A stretch of DNA of 32,000 nucleotides from Vibrio alginolyticus NBRC 15630 = ATCC 17749 (GTDB taxonomy: Bacteria; Pseudomonadota; Gammaproteobacteria; Enterobacterales; Vibrionaceae): positions 120,001-152,000 of the forward strand of contig NC_022349.1 in the NCBI RefSeq assembly GCF_000354175.2, read 5' to 3'. Position numbers and translations under genes: made by a program. Below are positions 22,169 through 30,705 of the stretch, piece by piece (the first letter of the stretch is position 1; the number at the start of each line of letters is the position of its first letter). The notes below the pieces were generated by a model. The model saw nothing but the letters and a program-made list of their open reading frames with translations. It searched no databases and was not told the DNA's origin.

Positions 22169-22203
22169 ACTCGGATTAAAGGAAGTTGCGTAGAGCAAGA
22201 GCA

Positions 22204-23265
22204 ATGAGCCATATATTAGATAAAATCGACACTGTTTACCCATTCCCACCGAAACCAGTTCCATTAAGCGAAGAAGAAAAAGCATCTTACATTGAGCGTA
22301 TTAAAAAGTTACTCAAAGAAAAAGATGCGGTACTTATCGCGCACTATTATACCGACCCTGAGATTCAAGCCCTAGCTGAAGACACTGGCGGGTTTGTTGG
22401 TGACTCGTTGGAAATGGCGAAGTTTGGTAATCGTCACCCTGCAAGTACATTGATTATTGGTGGTGTTCGCTTTATGGGCGAGTCGGCCAAAATTCTGACA
22501 CCAGAAAAGCGCATTCTAATGCCAACGTTGGAAGCGGAATGTTCGCTCGACCTTGGCTGTCCTGCGGATAAGTTCAGCGAGTTTTGTGATGCTCACCCTG
22601 ATCATACGGTTGTAGTTTACGCAAATACTTCAGCAGCGGTTAAAGCCCGTGCCGACTGGGTCGTTACATCGAGCATTGCGCTTGAAATCGTGGAACACTT
22701 AGACGCTGAAGATAAGCCAATTATTTGGGGACCAGACCGTCACCTAGGATCGTACATCGCTAACAAAACTGGCGCAGATATGCTGCTTTGGCAGGGTGAG
22801 TGTGTGGTTCATGATGAGTTCTCTGCTGATGCGCTACGAAAAATGAAGAGCGTGTATCCAGATGCGGCTATTTTGGTTCACCCTGAGTCACCAGCAAGCG
22901 TCGTAGAACTTGCCGATGCCGTTGGATCAACGAGTCAGCTGATCAAAGCAGCGAAAGAGCTTCCTCACAAACAAATGATCGTTGCGACAGACAAAGGCAT
23001 TTTCTTTAAAATGCAGCAACTTGTGCCAGAGAAAGAACTTATCGAAGCGCCAACCGCAGGTGCAGGCGCAACATGTCGCAGCTGTGCACACTGTCCTTGG
23101 ATGGCAATGAACGGTTTGAAAGCAATTGAGAAAGCGCTTAGTGAAGGTGGTGAAGAGCACGAAATTTTTGTTGATGAAGCGCTACGTGTGAAATCACTTA
23201 TCCCACTGAACCGCATGCTAGATTTTGCTGAGCAGCTAAATATGCAAGTGAAAGGTAATGCTTAA
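22204..23265 (+). CDS. nadA: Quinolinate synthase NadA
   Basis: The start was moved to the ATG at 22204 ([55 protein letters not shown]), colinear with E. coli NadA. The Fe-S cysteines ([24 protein letters not shown]) are present. Confidence 0.95.
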
Positions 23266-23293: not shown

Positions 23294-23323
23294 AAAAACC
23301 AGCCGAATATGGCTGGTTTTTTT
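23294..23323 (+). terminator. Rho-independent terminator of nadA
   Basis: CCAGCC (23299-23304) / GGCTGG (23311-23316) with a 6-nt loop, flanked by an A5 run and a T7 run. Confidence 0.85.
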
Positions 23324-23383
23324 GTGTCTTACTATCAATGAGTTACTATTGATGCAATCAATGAATATCGAGGTCATAAATTT

Positions 23384-24427
23384 ATGGCGGTGTGGTTAGT
23401 AGTTAAAAAGTGGCTTAGTTCCCACCTTTTTAAATTGAGCAACCGAAGCCTTCTCATCTTTAGTGGCTTATATGTGAGCCTTTCATGGTGGCTGCTGGTT
23501 CTCGCTGGTGAAACAGCATTAACAGACAGTTTCGCTAACTTTATCTATTACCTCATGGTTACGGCGAGTACGGTGGGTTATGGCGACCATTCTCCAGTAA
23601 CAGATATGGGTAAATGGGTTGTCGTACTATTTGTAATCCCCGGCGGTTTGAGCTTATTCGCCGCATTATTGGGGCGTGTCGCTGGAGCAGCGATGGACTA
23701 TTGGCGAGCGGGTATTTTAGGAAAACGGAGAGTAAGAGTGGAAAACCATATTGTATTGTTGGGCTGGAATGGATCGAGAACGATGCACCTTATTCGCATG
23801 TTACAACATGAAGAAGAGGGAAAGCGCCCGATTGTTTTATGCAGCCGTTCAGAAATAGAGAACCCGTTACCTGGCGAAATCAGTTTTATCAAAGTGACCA
23901 GTTATACCGATTCGCAAGAAATGAAAAACGCCAATATTGCCGAAGCCGCTTGCATTATTGTGGATAATCTCTCGGACGACATTACCTTGTCAGCCGCTCT
24001 ATACTGCGCATCTGTAAACCCTTCCGCTCATTTGGTCGCTTACTTTAAAGATGAAGCGCTAGGCCGACTTCTAAGTCAGCATTGCCCGAAAGCGGAATGC
24101 ATACCTGCTGTTGGCGCAGAAATGTTGGCAAAAGCGGCGGTTGACCCGGGCTCAAGTGCGCTTCATCAGGAGCTTTTGGCTTCAACACGAGGTATGACGC
24201 AATACTCAGTTATTTATCCTGAGGGGCAGTCTGCCACCACTATTGAGAATCTCTTCGTTTTTCTCAAAAGACGCCATCATGCCACGCTGATTGCTTTTGA
24301 TATTGGCGATGGTATTCAACTCAACCCAGATTTAGATGCTGAAGTACCCGCGAGTACCAAGCTGTTTTACATTGCAGATGAACGTATTGAAGATTTTGCC
24401 TGGAAAGAAATGAACAAGGAACAATAA
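23384..24427 (+). CDS. Two-TM potassium channel with C-terminal RCK/TrkA-N-like domain
   Basis: 347-aa ORF with two hydrophobic helices flanking a canonical K+ selectivity filter (TASTVGYGDHSP), followed by a Rossmann-like NHIVLLGWNGSRTMHLIRML segment. Confidence 0.88.
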   Translation: MAVWLVVKKWLSSHLFKLSNRSLLIFSGLYVSLSWWLLVLAGETALTDSFANFIYYLMVTASTVGYGDHSPVTDMGKWVVVLFVIPGGLSLFAALLGRVAGAAMDYWRAGILGKRRVRVENHIVLLGWNGSRTMHLIRMLQHEEEGKRPIVLCSRSEIENPLPGEISFIKVTSYTDSQEMKNANIAEAACIIVDNLSDDITLSAALYCASVNPSAHLVAYFKDEALGRLLSQHCPKAECIPAVGAEMLAKAAVDPGSSALHQELLASTRGMTQYSVIYPEGQSATTIENLFVFLKRRHHATLIAFDIGDGIQLNPDLDAEVPASTKLFYIADERIEDFAWKEMNKEQ

Positions 24428-24843
24428 TGCACATGATTGCTGGCCTGTTAGCAGGCTTCCCAAACTTTTTACTCTATTTCTCTGTTTCTATTATTTTTGT
24501 ATTGGCGTTTAAGTTCATCTACGTCAAGTTGACGCCATACGATGAGTGGCATCTGATTAAAGAAAAACAAAATACAGCAGCAGCGATTGCGCTAAGTGGG
24601 GCTTTCCTTGGTTACTGTCTCGCGATTTCGGGGGCGGCAAAAAACTCAGTCAATATCGTCGATTTTATGGTATGGGGCGTTGTCGCAATGCTTGCTCAAA
24701 TTATCGCATTTGCAATTGTACGCTTTATTTTACTTCCGAAAGTGGCAGAGCGTATCGAAAAAGATGAACTGCCAGCCGGTATTGTATTAGCAGCAGTTTC
24801 TGTTTCGGTTGGCGTATTGAATGCCGCGTGCATGACCTACTAG
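24427..24843 (+). CDS. yjfL: DUF350 family inner-membrane protein (YjfL homologue)
   Basis: 138-aa ORF with 4 predicted TM segments. KLTPYDEWHLIKEKQNTAAAIALSGAFLGY...NAACM parallels E. coli YjfL as I recall it. Its ATG overlaps the channel stop (TAATG, 24425-24429). Confidence 0.8.
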   Translation: MHMIAGLLAGFPNFLLYFSVSIIFVLAFKFIYVKLTPYDEWHLIKEKQNTAAAIALSGAFLGYCLAISGAAKNSVNIVDFMVWGVVAMLAQIIAFAIVRFILLPKVAERIEKDELPAGIVLAAVSVSVGVLNAACMTY

Positions 24844-24851
24844 GAGGAACG

Positions 24852-25421
24852 ATGAAGCGGAGTTCTAACGTTAAACGTTCTTCCATGGACAAAAGCTTAA
24901 AGATTGGGAAAATTCTTCCCTTTGCTGCCTTTGGTGGTATTTTCTTCTTTGCTACGTACGAGTCAAAAACAGAAGGGTACATTTTTTCTGATGCTGATGA
25001 GTGTAAATCTAACTCGCCTGAGTTTAGTGAACAGTGTGACATTGCATACCAAGAAGCTTTAGCTCGTGCCGAACAAAATGCCCCTCGCTACCGCAGCGAG
25101 TTCGAATGCGAGAATGATTTCTACGAGGATGATTGTTACTACAGTTCCAGTTCCCGAGCTTATGTACCTAACTTTGGCGGTTTTTTTTACAGTCGCTCAT
25201 TAAGCGGGTTGAAAGGTTATAACAAGAGCTATTACTCAGAGCCGATGTACCGTTATAAATCCAAATTCTATAATGGAGCAGGGCAATTCTTTGGCTCCTA
25301 CCGAAATCAGCCGACCAAAGTTGCGACGAATAGCCTTAATAAACGTGGTGGCGGCACCATTGGCAGGGCGATGTCTCGAGGCGGGTTTGGTAAAGCGGTG
25401 TCGGTCAGTCGAGGCGGTTAA
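24852..25421 (+). CDS. yjfM: DUF1190 family membrane-anchored protein (YjfM homologue)
   Basis: The start was moved to the ATG at 24852 (AGGAGG at 24842-24847). It has a basic N-terminus plus a signal-anchor (ILPFAAFGGIFFFATY), a four-Cys acidic segment, and a Gly/Arg-rich tail ending ...SVSRGG-stop. Confidence 0.8.
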   Translation: MKRSSNVKRSSMDKSLKIGKILPFAAFGGIFFFATYESKTEGYIFSDADECKSNSPEFSEQCDIAYQEALARAEQNAPRYRSEFECENDFYEDDCYYSSSSRAYVPNFGGFFYSRSLSGLKGYNKSYYSEPMYRYKSKFYNGAGQFFGSYRNQPTKVATNSLNKRGGGTIGRAMSRGGFGKAVSVSRGG

Positions 25422-25429
25422 AAAGCACT

Positions 25430-26596
25430 ATGTTTCGACGAGAAATACAAGAGCGCGAAAACTGGCGTGAATTAGCACGCCAGTTTGGTTTTGGTTTCCA
25501 TACCATGTATGACCAACCGTATTGGGATGAGAGTGCTTACTATCAATTCACGCTGGAGCAAATTGAGCGCGATATAGAAGCGCCCACTGAAGAGCTGCAT
25601 CAGATGTGCCTGGCTATTGTGGATGAAGTCGTTCGGAGTGAGCGGTTGCTGACGCAATGTGCGATCCCTGAATCTATGTGGGAGCAGGTCGCTTCTTCAT
25701 GGAGACGAAGCGAACCTTCGCTTTATTCGCGGCTGGATTTCGCGTACAACGGGACCTCGCCAGCAAAATTACTGGAAAACAATGCGGATACGCCAACCAG
25801 CTTGTTTGAAACTGGCTTTTGGCAGTGGGTGTGGCTAGAAGATGTTGTAAATAAAGGTCGAGTTCACCAGAGCGCGGATCAATTCAATATTCTTCAAGAC
25901 TTTTTGATCGAGCGCTTTGCCGAAATAGCAAAATACCAACCAGGACAAACACTTCACTTTAGCTGCTGCAAGTACACTGAAGAAGATAAAGGGACTGTCC
26001 AGTATTTAGAGGATTGCGCGCGAGAGGCAGGGTTAGCAACGGCATTCGTGCATGTCGAAGATATTGGAGTGACGGAAGATGGTCTGTTTGTGGATGCTGA
26101 CGACAGAGCGATTCGTTGGATGTTTAAGCTTTACCCTTGGGAGTTTATGTTTGAAGAGGAATATGCGAAGTACTTAGCGACTGCGAACGTAAACTGGTTA
26201 GAACCGATGTGGAAGTCGATTCTATCCAATAAAGCACTTTTACCGTTATTGTGGGAGCGCTTTCCTAATCACCCGAACCTTTTGCCCGCTTATTTTGCTA
26301 ACGATTCAAAAGCGAACACTATGAGAGATTGTGTCATCAAGCCACTATTTTCTCGAGAGGGCGCGAACATCGAGATCGTCATCGATGGAAAACGTTTTGT
26401 TAAAACGTCAGGGCCTTATGAATCTAAATTCAATATCGTCCAGCAATACCATCCACTACCTAAGTTTGGGCACAACCATACGTTAATTGGCAGTTGGTTG
26501 GTCAATGATAGAGCTGCCGGTATTTCGATTAGGGAAGACAGTAGCTTAGTGACTCAAGATATGGCGCGGTATATTCCACATGTAATTTTAACATGA
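25430..26596 (+). CDS. yjfC: Glutathionylspermidine synthase-like ATP-grasp amide ligase (YjfC homologue)
   Basis: 388-aa ORF. YWDESAYYQFTLEQIERDIEAPTEELHQMCL...LLENNADTPTSLFE...KLYPWEFM...WKSILSNKALLPLLW...KPLFSREGANI...LIGSWLV are the conserved blocks of the GspS pre-ATP-grasp/ATP-grasp family. Confidence 0.88.
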   Translation: MFRREIQERENWRELARQFGFGFHTMYDQPYWDESAYYQFTLEQIERDIEAPTEELHQMCLAIVDEVVRSERLLTQCAIPESMWEQVASSWRRSEPSLYSRLDFAYNGTSPAKLLENNADTPTSLFETGFWQWVWLEDVVNKGRVHQSADQFNILQDFLIERFAEIAKYQPGQTLHFSCCKYTEEDKGTVQYLEDCAREAGLATAFVHVEDIGVTEDGLFVDADDRAIRWMFKLYPWEFMFEEEYAKYLATANVNWLEPMWKSILSNKALLPLLWERFPNHPNLLPAYFANDSKANTMRDCVIKPLFSREGANIEIVIDGKRFVKTSGPYESKFNIVQQYHPLPKFGHNHTLIGSWLVNDRAAGISIREDSSLVTQDMARYIPHVILT

Positions 26597-26597
26597 T

Positions 26598-26628
26598 CAA
26601 AAAAGCTCTCCATTTGGAGAGCTTTTTG
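26598..26628. terminator. Bidirectional rho-independent terminator between convergent genes
   Basis: GCTCTCC (26605-26611) / GGAGAGC (26616-26622) with a 4-nt loop, an A-run on the left and a T-run on the right. Confidence 0.85.
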
Positions 26629-26669: not shown

Positions 26670-27281
26670 CTATTGTTCTTCAGCTAATGCAACACCGCGC
26701 TGGGTAAGACCACATAACATCACTGGCATTGCATTGAAGATCTCTTCAAACTGCTCTAAGCCTTCCATACCTTGTTCGGCCAATGTTTCAATGGTTGTTT
26801 CTGGGTCGTAAAGCATAGTAAGAGAAAGTAAAACACCACCGAGTAGGGCATTATCTTCGCTATCCTCAGGCATCAACGTTTCCCAGTCATCACGCGCAAG
26901 TTGCCAGCCTTGTAATACACCTTCACAGAAATCGCGAGCCTGACTTGTTACAATGTCTTGCTCATCTAGCGCGCACCCTGCAGGCCACTGCCAAGTGCCT
27001 TCTAGGAGAGCGGGACGAGTTTGGTTCCACATTTGTACAATCTCGTCAATGTACTGCTCTAGTTGTTCACCGTCAGTAAATGGCGCTGTTTCTTCTCCAC
27101 CCCATAAGAATGGCAACCACTCTTGAGGCATTAATACGTTTGGCGCTGCAGCCATCGCTGTTACAAAGCCTTGAGTTTTTGCTAGGTTTAGTAGTTTACC
27201 GTCAAGTTCTGGGAGAGAAAGGATGTCTTGTAGTTTCAAAATAGAATACCATTTGTTAATGGGCTGGTTGATTGCGCTCAT
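26670..27281 (-). CDS. UPF0149 (YgfB/YecA N-domain-like) family protein
   Basis: An acidic protein of about 203 aa. GFVTAMAAAPNVLMPQEWLPFLWGGE...IVQMWNQ is typical of UPF0149. I prefer the ATG at 27281 to the TTG at 27293. Confidence 0.7.
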   Translation of the reverse strand: MSAINQPINKWYSILKLQDILSLPELDGKLLNLAKTQGFVTAMAAAPNVLMPQEWLPFLWGGEETAPFTDGEQLEQYIDEIVQMWNQTRPALLEGTWQWPAGCALDEQDIVTSQARDFCEGVLQGWQLARDDWETLMPEDSEDNALLGGVLLSLTMLYDPETTIETLAEQGMEGLEQFEEIFNAMPVMLCGLTQRGVALAEEQ

Positions 27282-27317
27282 CTTACCAATCAATTAGTGA
27301 TAAATCGATATTAGGGA

Positions 27318-29753
27318 ATGATTCACACATCTATGGAAATTCGCTCATCACTTAGAAAAAAAAGCATTCTCGCCCTAACACTTTACCTGTGCTTCTTTAT
27401 CGCCACTATCGGTTCTGTCGCCTATTTGGTTGTTGAGCCACCGGTTAGACAAAAGCTAGAGCAAAACCTAGAGTTACGTACCCAACTCCTGGCTCTTGAG
27501 ATAAAAGAGCCCCTCCTCAGTTCTACAGGTGTATTGAGCAGCTTAGTAGGGCTAGCCCAAGGGACTGAAAATATTCAATCTCTCAACACAATAATTCCAC
27601 ATATACTTCAATTGAGTGACAAGATGCTTGTTAGTGGTGGCGTATGGCCTAAACCCGAACTAAAAGCAGAACAATGGAGATATAAAAGTCTATTCTTCAA
27701 TAAAAACAGTGATAGTGGTATTGACCAAATTCACTCCTACAATAACCCCGAATCTGGCGGTTATGATAATGAAGCCTGGTATGTCGCTGCCGCCGATGCT
27801 CCGGTAGGTTCTGTTAGTTGGTCTACGGTTTACATCGATACCTTTACTCAGGTCCAGATGATTACCGCGTCTTCTCCGTACTACCAAAACGGTCGATTCG
27901 CTGGAGTTGTAACGGTAGACCTATCACTTGATGCACTTTTTCAGTTTATTCGAGAGCACACGAACCAGCATTCTTTGGGGGTAGTGGTTCGCGATGCTGA
28001 CTCAAACGTGATTATTGAACACAACTTTCAACTGACGGACGAAATTTATGTCAGCGAGCTTGATTTCGGAGAGTTCGATTGGCGCATGGAAGTTGTCAAC
28101 GCAAAAGCTAAAGTCGCCGATCAAGTGTTTGAACAAGTGATGAGCGTTGAGGGGAGGATCATTCCATTTTTGCTCTTGTGTGTCTTGGTCGGTTACTACT
28201 TACTGAATCGCTATATTGTTGAACCAATTGTTCGCATTGCCGCTAAGATTGATGACTCGAAAACTGGTGGGATCATAGATATTGACTACGATAGCGATGA
28301 CGAAATCGGACAGCTTATCGAGAAGTTCAATGAAAAGACGATCTATTTAGAGCAGGAGAGAATAAAAGCTCAGGCTTCGACAAACGCTAAAACGGCATTC
28401 TTAGCCACATTGTCCCACGAGATTCGCACACCAATGAACGGTGTACTAGGAACTGCCCAGATACTGTTAAAAACACCACTTACCGATGAGCAGCGTAAGC
28501 ACCTGAGAACACTTTATGATTCAGGTGATCACATGATGACATTACTCAATGAGATTTTAGATTACTCAAAAATTGAACAAGGGCATGTTGAGTTTGAAAA
28601 TAAGCCTTTCCCAATTGAGTCGATTATCGGCAGTATCAAGAGTGTTTATCAAACGCTATGTGCAGAAAAAGGTCTTCGCTTTAGAGTAGTCTCGCATTTA
28701 CCAACGGGTCGTTGGTACAACAATGACAAAGCCCGTTTGCGTCAAGTACTGTTCAATCTACTCAATAACGCTGTTAAGTTCACCGATCGTGGCATCGTAG
28801 AGGTAGAGCTAGCCGAGAAATCGAGTAAGGCTGGCACCAAGCTGATACTAAAGGTAAAAGATACAGGGATTGGTATTTCAAAAGAGGCACAAAAACGCAT
28901 TTTTCGTCCTTTTGAGCAAGCAGAGTCATCAACGACTAGACGGTTTGGTGGTACAGGGCTTGGTTTAGCAATAGTCAAAGAAATCGCGGAACATATGGGT
29001 GGGCAAGTGGTTGTAGAGAGTCAGGAGGACGCTGGAACGACTTTTACTGTCGAAATTGCCCTTACACCTTGCAAGCCGGGTAAAGTAGAGTCAATCAATA
29101 CACATAAATTGAACTGTAAAGGGTTGAAAGCACTCATTGTTGAAGACAACCGAACAAATGCGATCATTATGGAAACTTTCCTCCGAGCCAAGGGCTTTGA
29201 GTGCACAAGTGTCGAAAATGGTCAGCTTGCAGTCGATGAGGTTGCGATCAAACCATTTGATTTGATACTGATGGATAATCATATGCCTGTTCTAGATGGC
29301 GTTGGGGCCATATCAGCCATTCGAGCAATGAGTTCACCTGCTAAGTCGGTACTGATTTTTGGCTGTACAGCGGATGTGTTCAAAGAAACACAAGAGCGTA
29401 TGATTAATGTAGGAGCAGACCACATAATAGCGAAACCAATAGTGGAGTCTGAATTAAATGATGCACTGTATCTTCATGCGACACAGTTATATCAGTACCA
29501 ATCGGACTTTGATGGAAATGCAGCAGATAGCTTTAATGCTGAAAAGTGGTTACTCAACTTCTATGTCGCTCTAGATAATGGACATCTTAATGAAGCACTT
29601 GAGGCTATTTCAGCGATCATTGCGGAGGCTCCCCTTGAACTCAGTGGCGACGTTTCTTCAGTCGCCGAACGGATAAGAAGTAACTTAAAGCGTCAGCAAT
29701 CCCCGGACCAAGATGATATCGATACATTAACGATTTTGCTGGCCTCACCATAA
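27318..29753 (+). CDS. Hybrid sensor histidine kinase (TM - Cache-like periplasmic domain - TM - HisKA - HATPase_c - REC - C-terminal extension)
   Basis: 811-aa ORF. The H-box is FLATLSHEIRTPMNGVLG, the N/G boxes are LNNAVKFT and DTGIGI...GGTGLGLAIV, and the receiver domain is ALIVEDNRTNA...LILMDNHMPVLDG...KP. The start could instead be Met6 (27333), and the RBS is poor for both. Confidence 0.88.
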   Translation: MIHTSMEIRSSLRKKSILALTLYLCFFIATIGSVAYLVVEPPVRQKLEQNLELRTQLLALEIKEPLLSSTGVLSSLVGLAQGTENIQSLNTIIPHILQLSDKMLVSGGVWPKPELKAEQWRYKSLFFNKNSDSGIDQIHSYNNPESGGYDNEAWYVAAADAPVGSVSWSTVYIDTFTQVQMITASSPYYQNGRFAGVVTVDLSLDALFQFIREHTNQHSLGVVVRDADSNVIIEHNFQLTDEIYVSELDFGEFDWRMEVVNAKAKVADQVFEQVMSVEGRIIPFLLLCVLVGYYLLNRYIVEPIVRIAAKIDDSKTGGIIDIDYDSDDEIGQLIEKFNEKTIYLEQERIKAQASTNAKTAFLATLSHEIRTPMNGVLGTAQILLKTPLTDEQRKHLRTLYDSGDHMMTLLNEILDYSKIEQGHVEFENKPFPIESIIGSIKSVYQTLCAEKGLRFRVVSHLPTGRWYNNDKARLRQVLFNLLNNAVKFTDRGIVEVELAEKSSKAGTKLILKVKDTGIGISKEAQKRIFRPFEQAESSTTRRFGGTGLGLAIVKEIAEHMGGQVVVESQEDAGTTFTVEIALTPCKPGKVESINTHKLNCKGLKALIVEDNRTNAIIMETFLRAKGFECTSVENGQLAVDEVAIKPFDLILMDNHMPVLDGVGAISAIRAMSSPAKSVLIFGCTADVFKETQERMINVGADHIIAKPIVESELNDALYLHATQLYQYQSDFDGNAADSFNAEKWLLNFYVALDNGHLNEALEAISAIIAEAPLELSGDVSSVAERIRSNLKRQQSPDQDDIDTLTILLASP

Positions 29754-29829
29754 CTGAATCAATATGGCGCAACTGTAAATTGTTCTTACTATTCATACGT
29801 CATCCAGCGTCGTCACAAACTCTTCTAAC

Positions 29830-29860
29830 CTGCAATGAACAGGCTTGCAGTTTTACTTTT
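29830..29860 (+). terminator. Weak terminator candidate after the sensor kinase
   Basis: CTGCAA (29830-29835) / TTGCAG (29845-29850) with a 9-nt loop, then TTTTACTTTT. Confidence 0.35.
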
Positions 29861-30255
29861 ACGAGTAAAGCAGCAAGACCTTCTACTGTGATTATATCGG
29901 TAATACTCTGAATTTTCGCAGCTTGGTAGCATAAGCTATAGGAGTGACTGTTTACAGTCCGAGTTTTGTTCTAACTTTACGTCAAAATAATTATCGTAAC
30001 CCCTTTTTATGTAAGTGAAATCCGTGTTTTTGTACCATTTTTACGTAATTTTAGGCGTTTTTACTCGCCATTGGTGAAAAAAACTACTTTTACTTTAAAA
30101 GTTGGTTATAAATTTACAACTTAATTTTAAATACAGAGCCATAAGCTGGTTTTTGTGTGTTCTAATTGCATCATTAACTGGCTTGATGTCTTTTTAGTGG
30201 TTAATAGTTTTATTATTTTTATTAATTGCAGTGTTTGATTTTAAGGGTTTTGTAA

Positions 30256-30705
30256 ATGAAGTCTCGTGGACCATTTTGTATTCGTCACGCCGCAGCGGAT
30301 ACCTTTGCTATGGTTGTTTTTTGCTTTATCACAGGGATGATTGTCGAGATTTTGATTTCAGGGATGACATTTGAGCAATCTCTAGCATCGCGTACGCTAT
30401 CGATTCCAGTGAATATCGCCATTGCTTGGCCGTATGGGGTTTTTCGTGATTGGGTGCTGCATCAAGGTAGTAAGGTGTCGCCGTCTTCCTTTATGAAAAA
30501 CATCTCTGATCTGGTCGCTTATGTACTATTTCAATCTCCAGTTTATGCGGGTATCTTATTCGCGGTTGGCGCGTCTACAGATCAAATTGTGACCGCAGTG
30601 GCAAGTAACGCTGTTATTTCTTGTGGCATGGGTGTGTTGTATGGGTACTTCTTGGATATGTGCCGCCGTTGGTTCCGTGTTCCCGGTTATTCTCAAAGCA
30701 TGTAA
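30256..30705 (+). CDS. alaE: L-alanine exporter AlaE
   Basis: 149-aa [17 protein letters not shown]...[32 protein letters not shown]...[15 protein letters not shown]...[12 protein letters not shown] is colinear with E. coli AlaE (YgaW), which has the same length. Confidence 0.88.

Follow-up and report, generated by a model that had tools for sequence, protein, structure and literature searches.

The question raised by this locus of Vibrio alginolyticus NBRC 15630 (= ATCC 17749) is why a potassium channel gene stands at the head of genes for a ligase of the glutathionylspermidine (Gsp) synthetase family and its companions, and whether the channel and these genes act together. The locus lies in a 32,000-nucleotide (nt) stretch of contig NC_022349.1 (positions 120,001 to 152,000), termed here the window, from whose first letter all positions are counted. 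It comprises four genes of the forward (+) strand: (i) an MthK-type K+ channel gene (23384-24427, 347 amino acids (aa)), (ii) a DUF350/YjfL-like gene (24427-24843, 138 aa), (iii) a DUF1190 (YgiB/YjfM-like) gene (24852-25421, 189 aa counted from ATG) and (iv) a GspS-like ATP-grasp ligase gene (25430-26596, 388 aa). The best overall explanation, favored here with some reserve, is that the four genes represent a reduced yjfI-yjfJ-channel-yjfK-yjfL-yjfM-yjfC module that would link envelope stress to polyamines, from which yjfIJK were lost and in which the channel is an accessory. The window form is a reduced variant (no PspA dyad, no DUF2491 and a non-lipoprotein DUF1190) of a module that is known but functionally unsolved.

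The evidence that carries this reading is gene order across genomes. A ligase-centered scan of one genome per species (80 loci, annotated by phmmer against the window and Escherichia coli proteins) was set beside a channel-centered metagenome scan (64 loci whose sequence continues for 1.5 kb or more past the 3' end of the channel gene), and gene orders were written in a letter code (T, TolC; I, YjfI; J, YjfJ/PspA; C, channel; K, YjfK; L, DUF350; M, DUF1190; G, ligase). The ligase loci are of the types TMG (42/80, Enterobacterales only), LMG (10/80), IJCKLMG (10/80; Alteromonadales, Cellvibrionales, Corallincola and the alphaproteobacterium Jiella, where the dyad is inverted), MG (9/80), CLMG, the type of the window (6/80; Glaciecola, Cellvibrionaceae and Ketobacteraceae), IJKLMG, the E. 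coli yjf type (2/80), and G alone (1/80). In the metagenomes, the gene that follows the channel is yjfK in 45 of 64 loci (IJCKLMG), DUF350 in 4/64 and no module gene in 15/64. The order of channel, DUF350, DUF1190 and ligase genes is shared by 16 genome loci and some 50 metagenome loci; strong channel homologs sit inside the module in 48 of 53 cases and stand alone in the other 5/53, while homologs of 36-38% identity form a separate stand-alone group. Pfam searches of a representative locus (L004; loci of the comparison carry L numbers) bear out DUF2170, PspA_IM30 and DUF2491. The adjacency of channel and module, on whose conservation a first-pass annotation of the window had made its proposal depend, thus reaches Alteromonadales, Cellvibrionales, Ketobacteraceae and one alphaproteobacterium.

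The CLMG type occurs at five or more separate places on an unbootstrapped neighbor-joining tree of the ligase, a scatter that fits repeated joint loss of yjfI, yjfJ and yjfK. Among the open reading frames of the 32-kb window, phmmer finds no match to YjfI, YjfJ or YjfK, and no match to PspA, DUF2170 or DUF2491 occurs anywhere in it. The gene orders indicate that E. coli lost the channel, and that yjfIJK disappeared from Vibrio and from four or more further lineages. The first-pass annotation had instead read the channel as swapped for PspA, i.e., as a replacement of, and functional alternative to, the PspA-like effector at the module head. This view starts from a correct observation: the E. 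coli yjfIJKLMC operon, with YjfL-YjfM-YjfC in the same order as the window trio and with short gaps, is headed by yjfI-yjfJ (PspA-like) and has yjfI-yjfJ-yjfK but no channel, whereas the window has the reverse. A swap is nevertheless very improbable, as channel and PspA stand together in the IJCKLMG loci, the most widespread channel-bearing order (10/80 ligase-centered and 45/64 channel-centered, with Pfam-confirmed families), and neither of them is present in the LMG and MG loci.

The same combination of genes has been published, so the locus, first put forward as the best candidate in the window for an undescribed system, is not one. Ravi et al. 2024 (PMC11237479; mSystems 9:e00847-23) describe a PspA dyad with a K+ channel that has an intracellular ligand sensor, a four-transmembrane (4TM) DUF350 protein, a DUF1190 lipoprotein, a GspS-like ATP-grasp enzyme and DUF2491, and suggest that these systems keep watch on polyamines in order to change the structure of the membrane; their description is comparative-genomic only, with function not demonstrated. 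Their third group (e.g., Alteromonas AMJ95269-AMJ95273), which recurs here in loci L004 to L078, shares with the window all four families and their order. Unlike this group, the window is without the CesT/Tir-like YjfI (DUF2170), the PspA-like YjfJ and DUF2491/YjfK, and its DUF1190 protein has no lipobox.

The ligase is the best understood member of the unit. It matches Pfam GSP_synth (PF03738, 2.4e-158) over its full length (residues 12-386), finds YgiC (PDB 7uk8, 2.6e-154) and YjfC (PDB 7uk6, 6e-126) among known structures, and is 57% identical to E. coli YgiC and 48% to YjfC; that it is an orthologue of these E. coli peptide-spermidine ligases is strongly supported. E. coli Gss (PDB 2io7) shares with it the ATP-grasp synthetase fold and the ATP/Mg2+/acyl-phosphate residues: R101, D103, E116 and N118 of the ligase align with R316, D318, E330 and N332 of GspS, and K268, K304, R309 and R368 align with K498, K533, R538 and R598, residues that presumably serve the catalytic, Mg2+ and nucleotide roles of the ATP-grasp. 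The first-pass reading of an ATP-grasp enzyme, which hinged on such residues being present, is borne out by this alignment. By contrast, GspS S335, S337, C338 and D610, taken here to be the glutathione-side contacts of Gss, correspond to T121, T123, S124 and R380 of the ligase, and the same replacement is found in YgiC and YjfC. Enzymes of the GspS type activate a carboxylate as an acyl phosphate and then amidate it with a polyamine; in Gss, the carboxylate is that of the C-terminal glycine of glutathione and the amine is spermidine. By analogy, the window ligase would follow the same course. Homology to assayed enzymes and the catalytic residues strongly support the assignment of the window protein as an ATP-dependent peptide-polyamine ligase. 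Norspermidine is the characteristic triamine of Vibrio, and the amine of the Vibrio ligase is probably norspermidine or spermidine.

The first-pass annotation knew of no demonstrated substrate, product or phenotype for this enzyme class, a statement that is outdated as far as the RefSeq names and the review PMC11762307 reach. RefSeq now labels E. coli YgiC and YjfC 'peptide--spermidine ligase'. YgiC is credited with peptide-spermidine ligase activity (Pederick et al. 2023, as cited in PMC11762307); its physiological substrate is still unknown according to this 2025 review, which also associates ygiBC with the growth defect of tolC mutants. ygiB is Cpx-regulated and contributes to Citrobacter fitness.

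A further alternative is that the ligase is a true glutathionylspermidine synthetase that functions independently of its neighbors. The name of the Pfam family and a partial NCBIfam match to the bifunctional Gsp equivalog (155 bits vs a cut-off of 882) speak for it, but the 388-aa ligase lacks the N-terminal CHAP amidase domain of Gss, aligns solely to Gss residues ~195-619 and has the presumed glutathione contacts replaced as in YgiC/YjfC. The invariant pairing of the ligase with DUF1190 also argues against its independence. With YgiC itself cited as having no Gsp synthetase activity (Sui 2012, in PMC11762307), and with neither YgiC nor YjfC producing glutathionylspermidine, this alternative is scarcely tenable.

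The two proteins between channel and ligase are of the predicted families. DUF350 (Pfam 6.6e-41, full length) is of the 4-TM inner-membrane type, is 42% identical to E. coli YjfL and lies directly before DUF1190 in 28/28 ligase-centered loci that have DUF350. DUF1190 (Pfam 9e-26) is closer to YgiB (25% identity, E 7e-19) than to YjfM. Profile searches, which the first-pass annotation had done without, thus support the family assignments of all four proteins, and its likening of the last three genes to yjfL-yjfM-yjfC stands for families and order; the ligase and DUF1190 are, however, nearer to YgiC and YgiB, and only DUF350 has its E. coli counterpart in the yjf operon. None of the four proteins matches the PADLOC anti-phage defense models at E <= 0.01. 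The closest E. coli homologs of the DUF1190-ligase pair are found in tolC-ygiB-ygiC. A channel gene heads the pair in both operons; it encodes the outer-membrane TolC in E. coli vs an inner-membrane K+ channel in the window, and the E. coli operon has no DUF350. Loss of ygiBC/yjfMC reportedly worsens the growth defect of tolC mutants and PspA is said to be induced, an account that PMC11762307 confirms only in part.

The DUF1190 protein consists of a basic N-terminus, a hydrophobic anchor, a folded domain with four cysteines and a disordered basic tail that ends ...SRGGFGKAVSVSRGG-COOH. Against a family mean column identity of about 21-30%, C51, C62, C86, C95, P106, R176, G178 and G180 are invariant and G177, F179 and G188 nearly so; the RGGFG motif and the terminal Gly-Gly are what the family conserves most strongly, and the window protein has all four Cys, RGGFG (R176-G180) and the terminal GG. 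YgiB likewise retains an RGGFG...MGG-COOH tail. The median net charge is -7 for the acidic Cys-rich domain and +11 for the strongly basic tail. In the AlphaFold2 (AF2) model, residues 39-165 (24966-25346) form a compact alpha/beta domain with a predicted local distance difference test (pLDDT) score of 84-94, and the N-terminus and the tail (172-189) are disordered. A Foldseek search of this domain against the PDB gives no match better than E = 1.9, and the domain may represent a fold that has no solved representative. Most other lineages have a lipobox, L[SA][AG]C, in DUF1190. The window protein (N-terminus, 24852-24970) and all Vibrio/Enterovibrio homologs are without the lipobox Cys (...FFFATYESK), which suggests that they are probably retained in the inner membrane by an uncleaved signal anchor, not as lipoproteins.

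DUF1190 and the ligase form the core of the module, since DUF1190 is immediately upstream in 78/80 ligase loci, irrespective of the other genes that a locus carries. The loci without a normal DUF1190 partner are L073, with no detectable DUF1190 upstream, and L005, where the DUF1190 reading frame ends ...STLA, overlaps the ligase and may be frameshifted in a metagenome-assembled genome. A C-terminal Gly-Gly is found in 72/~79 genome loci, in 48/48 complete metagenome copies and in 95/120 database cluster representatives; the departures from it are for the most part truncated or frameshifted copies, or ones whose last residues are Gly-Ser or a run of Ser behind WGG. The possibility that the Gly-Gly codons are a by-product of the ligase ribosome-binding site was considered and rejected: the codons are GGC GGC in 17, GGT GGC in 16 and GGT GGT in 10 sequences, with others besides, the sequence GGAGG is used in only 12/71, and Gly-Gly persists where the gap to the ligase is 48-143 nt. 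The constraint thus acts on the protein, as the third codon positions are free and the residues are kept across such gaps. GspS-family enzymes activate a C-terminal Gly carboxylate, and YgiC and YjfC ligate peptides to spermidine; thus, the DUF1190 C-terminal tail (RGGFG...Gly-Gly-COOH) is put forward, as the simplest reading, as a candidate for the native acyl substrate of the ligase, a tentative proposal that is possible rather than probable.

The first gene encodes a K+ channel. It matches Pfam Ion_trans_2 (4e-14) and, below threshold, TrkA_N (1.7e-3), and its TVGYGD filter (residues 63-68) is invariant in 20 orthologs. By phmmer, residues 48-320 align with MthK 44-311 (E 3e-17), including both RCK lobes, and MthK chains that consist of the RCK domain only match residues 117-320. 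The filter and RCK-like domain noticed in the first-pass annotation are thus both present. The channel resembles MthK (PDB 1lnq/8djb) in architecture, length, 2-TM TVGYGD pore and two-lobe RCK region. However, two of three residues of the MthK Ca2+ triad (D184/E210/E212) are lost (D194/Y220/K222 in the channel, with Y220 and K222 at the sites of E210 and E212), and there is no conservation of the internal Met that MthK uses for making soluble RCK subunits (the consensus has Ile in place of M104). Thus, the channel is MthK-like in architecture and is not to be filed as Ca2+-gated. Its glycine motif reads GWNGSR instead of GxGxxG. Orthologs in other orders are 32-47% identical and keep DPGSS (254-258) invariant or nearly so; this motif (D254-S258, with S258 nearly invariant) could be a ligand site. 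The AF2 model of the channel (pLDDT 61) has M1, a pore helix, M2 and then a Rossmann-like fold in secondary structure, and is too low in confidence for a fold search. A 702-member cluster named V. chemaguriensis has 97% identity to the protein. That the protein is an RCK-gated K+ channel of the MthK type, and belongs to a subfamily devoted for the most part to this module, is strongly supported.

The channel is also tied to polyamine enzymes in settings other than the window order. In locus L148 (1790-6897), it follows the ligase (yjfI-yjfJ-yjfK-DUF350-DUF1190-ligase-channel), and is thus kept in the module though relocated. In the metagenome locus L108 (1-7026, Ga0105355_10004525), an operon ends with a channel of the same subfamily that is 46% identical to the window channel and follows genes for an 8TM double-DUF350 protein, a 7TM-Spermine_synth-like protein, DUF2170, PspA_IM30 and two unannotated open reading frames; the operon of L098 appears to resemble it. 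Channel, DUF350 and PspA therefore recur around two unrelated polyamine enzymes, and the tie of the channel to polyamines is independent of the ligase.

With these parts, the reduced-module explanation can be put as a series of conditional steps. The ligase would cap the terminal glycine of DUF1190 with spermidine or norspermidine before export, so that the tail of this envelope protein would bear a polyamine cap and be strongly cationic, and the 4-TM DUF350 protein would take part in this polyamine chemistry as its partner in the membrane. The major cations of the cytoplasm are K+ and polyamines. The RCK ring of the channel would sense a cue in the cytoplasm other than Ca2+ or a dinucleotide, perhaps the status of polyamines or of their conjugate, and the channel would move K+ and so reset membrane potential and cation balance under the same envelope/polyamine stress. 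Polyamines are also classic K+ channel blockers. In a more far-reaching form of this reading, which is unlikely, DUF1190 proteins would be the ribosomally made substrates of an unrecognized protein modification, a polyamine cap added before export to the invariant C-terminal glycine. At its boldest, the resulting tethered polycation would regulate the channel encoded by the head gene, which would be the RCK K+ channel here and TolC in enterobacteria.

Several observations weigh against this reading, and they concern both the channel and the tail. The channel occurs in just 16/80 ligase-centered loci and is missing from 64/80. One strain of Vibrio cholerae (L083) and one of Vibrio vulnificus (L085) have the order nadA-channel-UPF0149 with no trio, and in Vibrio mimicus (L168/L169) DUF350-DUF1190-ligase is found at another locus, between a glycosyl hydrolase and an OmpA-like gene, with no adjacent channel. 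For the tail, the difficulty is compartment. Nearly all DUF1190 proteins have a lipobox, and those of Vibrio have an N-in signal anchor. A second TM helix (FFMPxMAGFM), which would place the tail in the cytoplasm, was considered and rejected, as Kyte-Doolittle hydropathy in a 19-residue stretch has a median of 0.8, with 0.12 for the window protein, and AF2 puts the motif in beta-strands of the confident domain. Thus, the Gly-Gly tail is most likely periplasmic and the ATP-dependent ligase cytoplasmic, on the basis of sequence and model, and modification would need to precede export. A precedent for such an order exists in autotransporters, which are glycosylated in the cytoplasm and only then exported by Sec. 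In addition, no ligase columns covary with the terminal G vs S of DUF1190 beyond phylogeny.

The Vibrio loci bear on an alternative in which the channel is functionally independent, i.e., an ordinary RCK-gated K+ channel that is cotranscribed with a polyamine/envelope module and whose adjacency to the trio reflects shared regulation or operon history. All four genes are at the nadA locus in V. vulnificus L167, and comparison with L085 gives a clean presence/absence of the trio with the same terminator as endpoint. At this syntenic site, V. cholerae L083 and V. vulnificus L085 have the channel but not the trio, the V. mimicus trio is elsewhere with no channel, and the channel is absent from E. 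coli, Oceanisphaera and many LMG/MG/TMG loci. Five strong channel homologs and all of the 36-38%-identical ones are stand-alone, and those of L136, L139 and L144 have unrelated neighbors (a two-component system, an O-methyltransferase and a solute-binding protein). Since channel and trio can each be found in the absence of the other, any coupling between them is accessory, and the distribution marks the channel as an accessory, not an obligate, module component. Full independence, by contrast, appears doubtful, though it carries real weight: the subfamily is inside the module in 48/53 strong metagenomic matches from several orders, it occupies three positions (in the yjfJ/yjfK interval, directly before DUF350 and, in L148, after the ligase), and it recurs in the second, non-homologous polyamine/PspA operon of L108. 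That the channel is kept through repeated rearrangement argues for a functional link.

A different link between channel and ligase is conceivable, in which the ligase makes a small, soluble peptide-polyamine conjugate, and this conjugate, or the depleted polyamine pool, is the RCK ligand. KefC, which is gated by glutathione and its adducts, would be the model. The RCK domain has neither the Ca2+ triad of MthK nor a dinucleotide motif, DPGSS (D254-S258) offers a possible ligand site, and the homologs of the ligase are named peptide-spermidine ligases whose physiological substrate is unknown (PMC11762307). However, a soluble conjugate leaves the pairing of DUF1190 with the ligase and the conservation of the tail unexplained, and most ligase loci are without the channel, so gating cannot be the general role of the ligase. 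This possibility is quite unlikely, and the reduced module with an accessory channel remains the preferred explanation.

At the level of the locus, the four genes are tightly packed. The channel stop and the DUF350 start share TAATG (24425-24429), and 8-nt gaps separate DUF350 from DUF1190 and DUF1190 from the ligase. A GGAGG ribosome-binding site precedes the DUF1190 ATG at 24852; open reading frame calling extends the gene upstream to a GTG at 24828, but the ATG is taken as the start because the gene calls of orthologs agree with it. Upstream, the unit is insulated by the intrinsic terminator of nadA (23294-23321, + strand; -16.2 kcal/mol, z -5.4). It has a stem of 12 pairs with a T run behind it, and this stem is kept at the loci of other Vibrio species. 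Downstream, it is closed by a terminator hairpin (26600-26627, assigned to neither strand; -18.5 kcal/mol, z -6.05) held in common with the convergent UPF0149 gene; in V. vulnificus, the equivalent hairpin comes behind the ligase in L167 and, with the trio missing, immediately behind the channel in L085. The packing of four same-strand genes between strong terminators, as first described, is confirmed by this analysis. That the four genes form one compact unit, conserved as a block, is strongly supported by these features, and a single operon is the best explanation of the arrangement in Harveyi-clade Vibrio.

Signals that might divide the channel from the trio were also considered, the first-pass annotation having named an internal promoter or terminator as a threat to its view. 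Promoter-like sites within the unit are not enriched (11 vs 8.0 +/- 3.2 in shuffled sequence). A single terminator-like hairpin occurs inside the unit, near the 5' end of the ligase gene at codons 10-19 (25459-25486, + strand; an 11-pair stem with a U-rich tail; -18.1 kcal/mol, z -4.0). As a conserved attenuator it was rejected, being absent from L084 and L168; it is probably incidental, because it is confined to near-identical Harveyi-clade loci. The hairpin could reduce ligase expression.

The 60-nt leader/promoter region ahead of the channel contains a 15-bp perfect palindrome, ATTGATGCAATCAAT (23348-23362, assigned to neither strand), which ends 22 nt short of the ATG of the channel. Between the nadA terminator and the palindrome there is a third half-site, ATCAAT (23334-23339). 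The palindrome is a possible operator. As a conserved operator it was rejected, since the arms are kept in the 96%-identical L086 and not in L087 or L084.

The upstream neighbors of the unit are tol-pal, cpoB and nadA. For nadA, the called start is a TTG (22186-22206), and an ATG seven codons downstream (MSHILDK...) gives a protein of 353 aa; the downstream ATG is the likelier start because 353 aa matches the calls in other Vibrio genomes. The downstream neighbors, conserved across Vibrio (26670-30705), are the convergent UPF0149 (YecA-like) gene, a hybrid sensor kinase (dCache/PDC + HisKA + HATPase + REC, 811 aa) and alaE, and the three have no link to the module outside Vibrio.

What is already known of this system is the association of its genes, which is published, and the class of the enzyme, which is characterized in vitro; what is new is the invariant DUF1190-ligase core, the conserved Gly-Gly tail and the occurrence of the channel in a spermidine-synthase-like/PspA operon. 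YgiBC/YjfLMC are conserved across Proteobacteria and tied to TolC, PspA-type membrane stress and polyamines. If the tail hypothesis fails, the locus is another copy of a catalogued operon of unknown function; as it stands, the conserved DUF1190 tail offers a testable hypothesis for the ligase substrate. The presence of the channel in the commonest channel-bearing form of the module and in a second polyamine/PspA operon points to a link between polyamine chemistry and K+/membrane potential, for which the Vibrio species provide natural genetic contrasts: the channel with the trio, the channel alone, and the trio alone at another locus.

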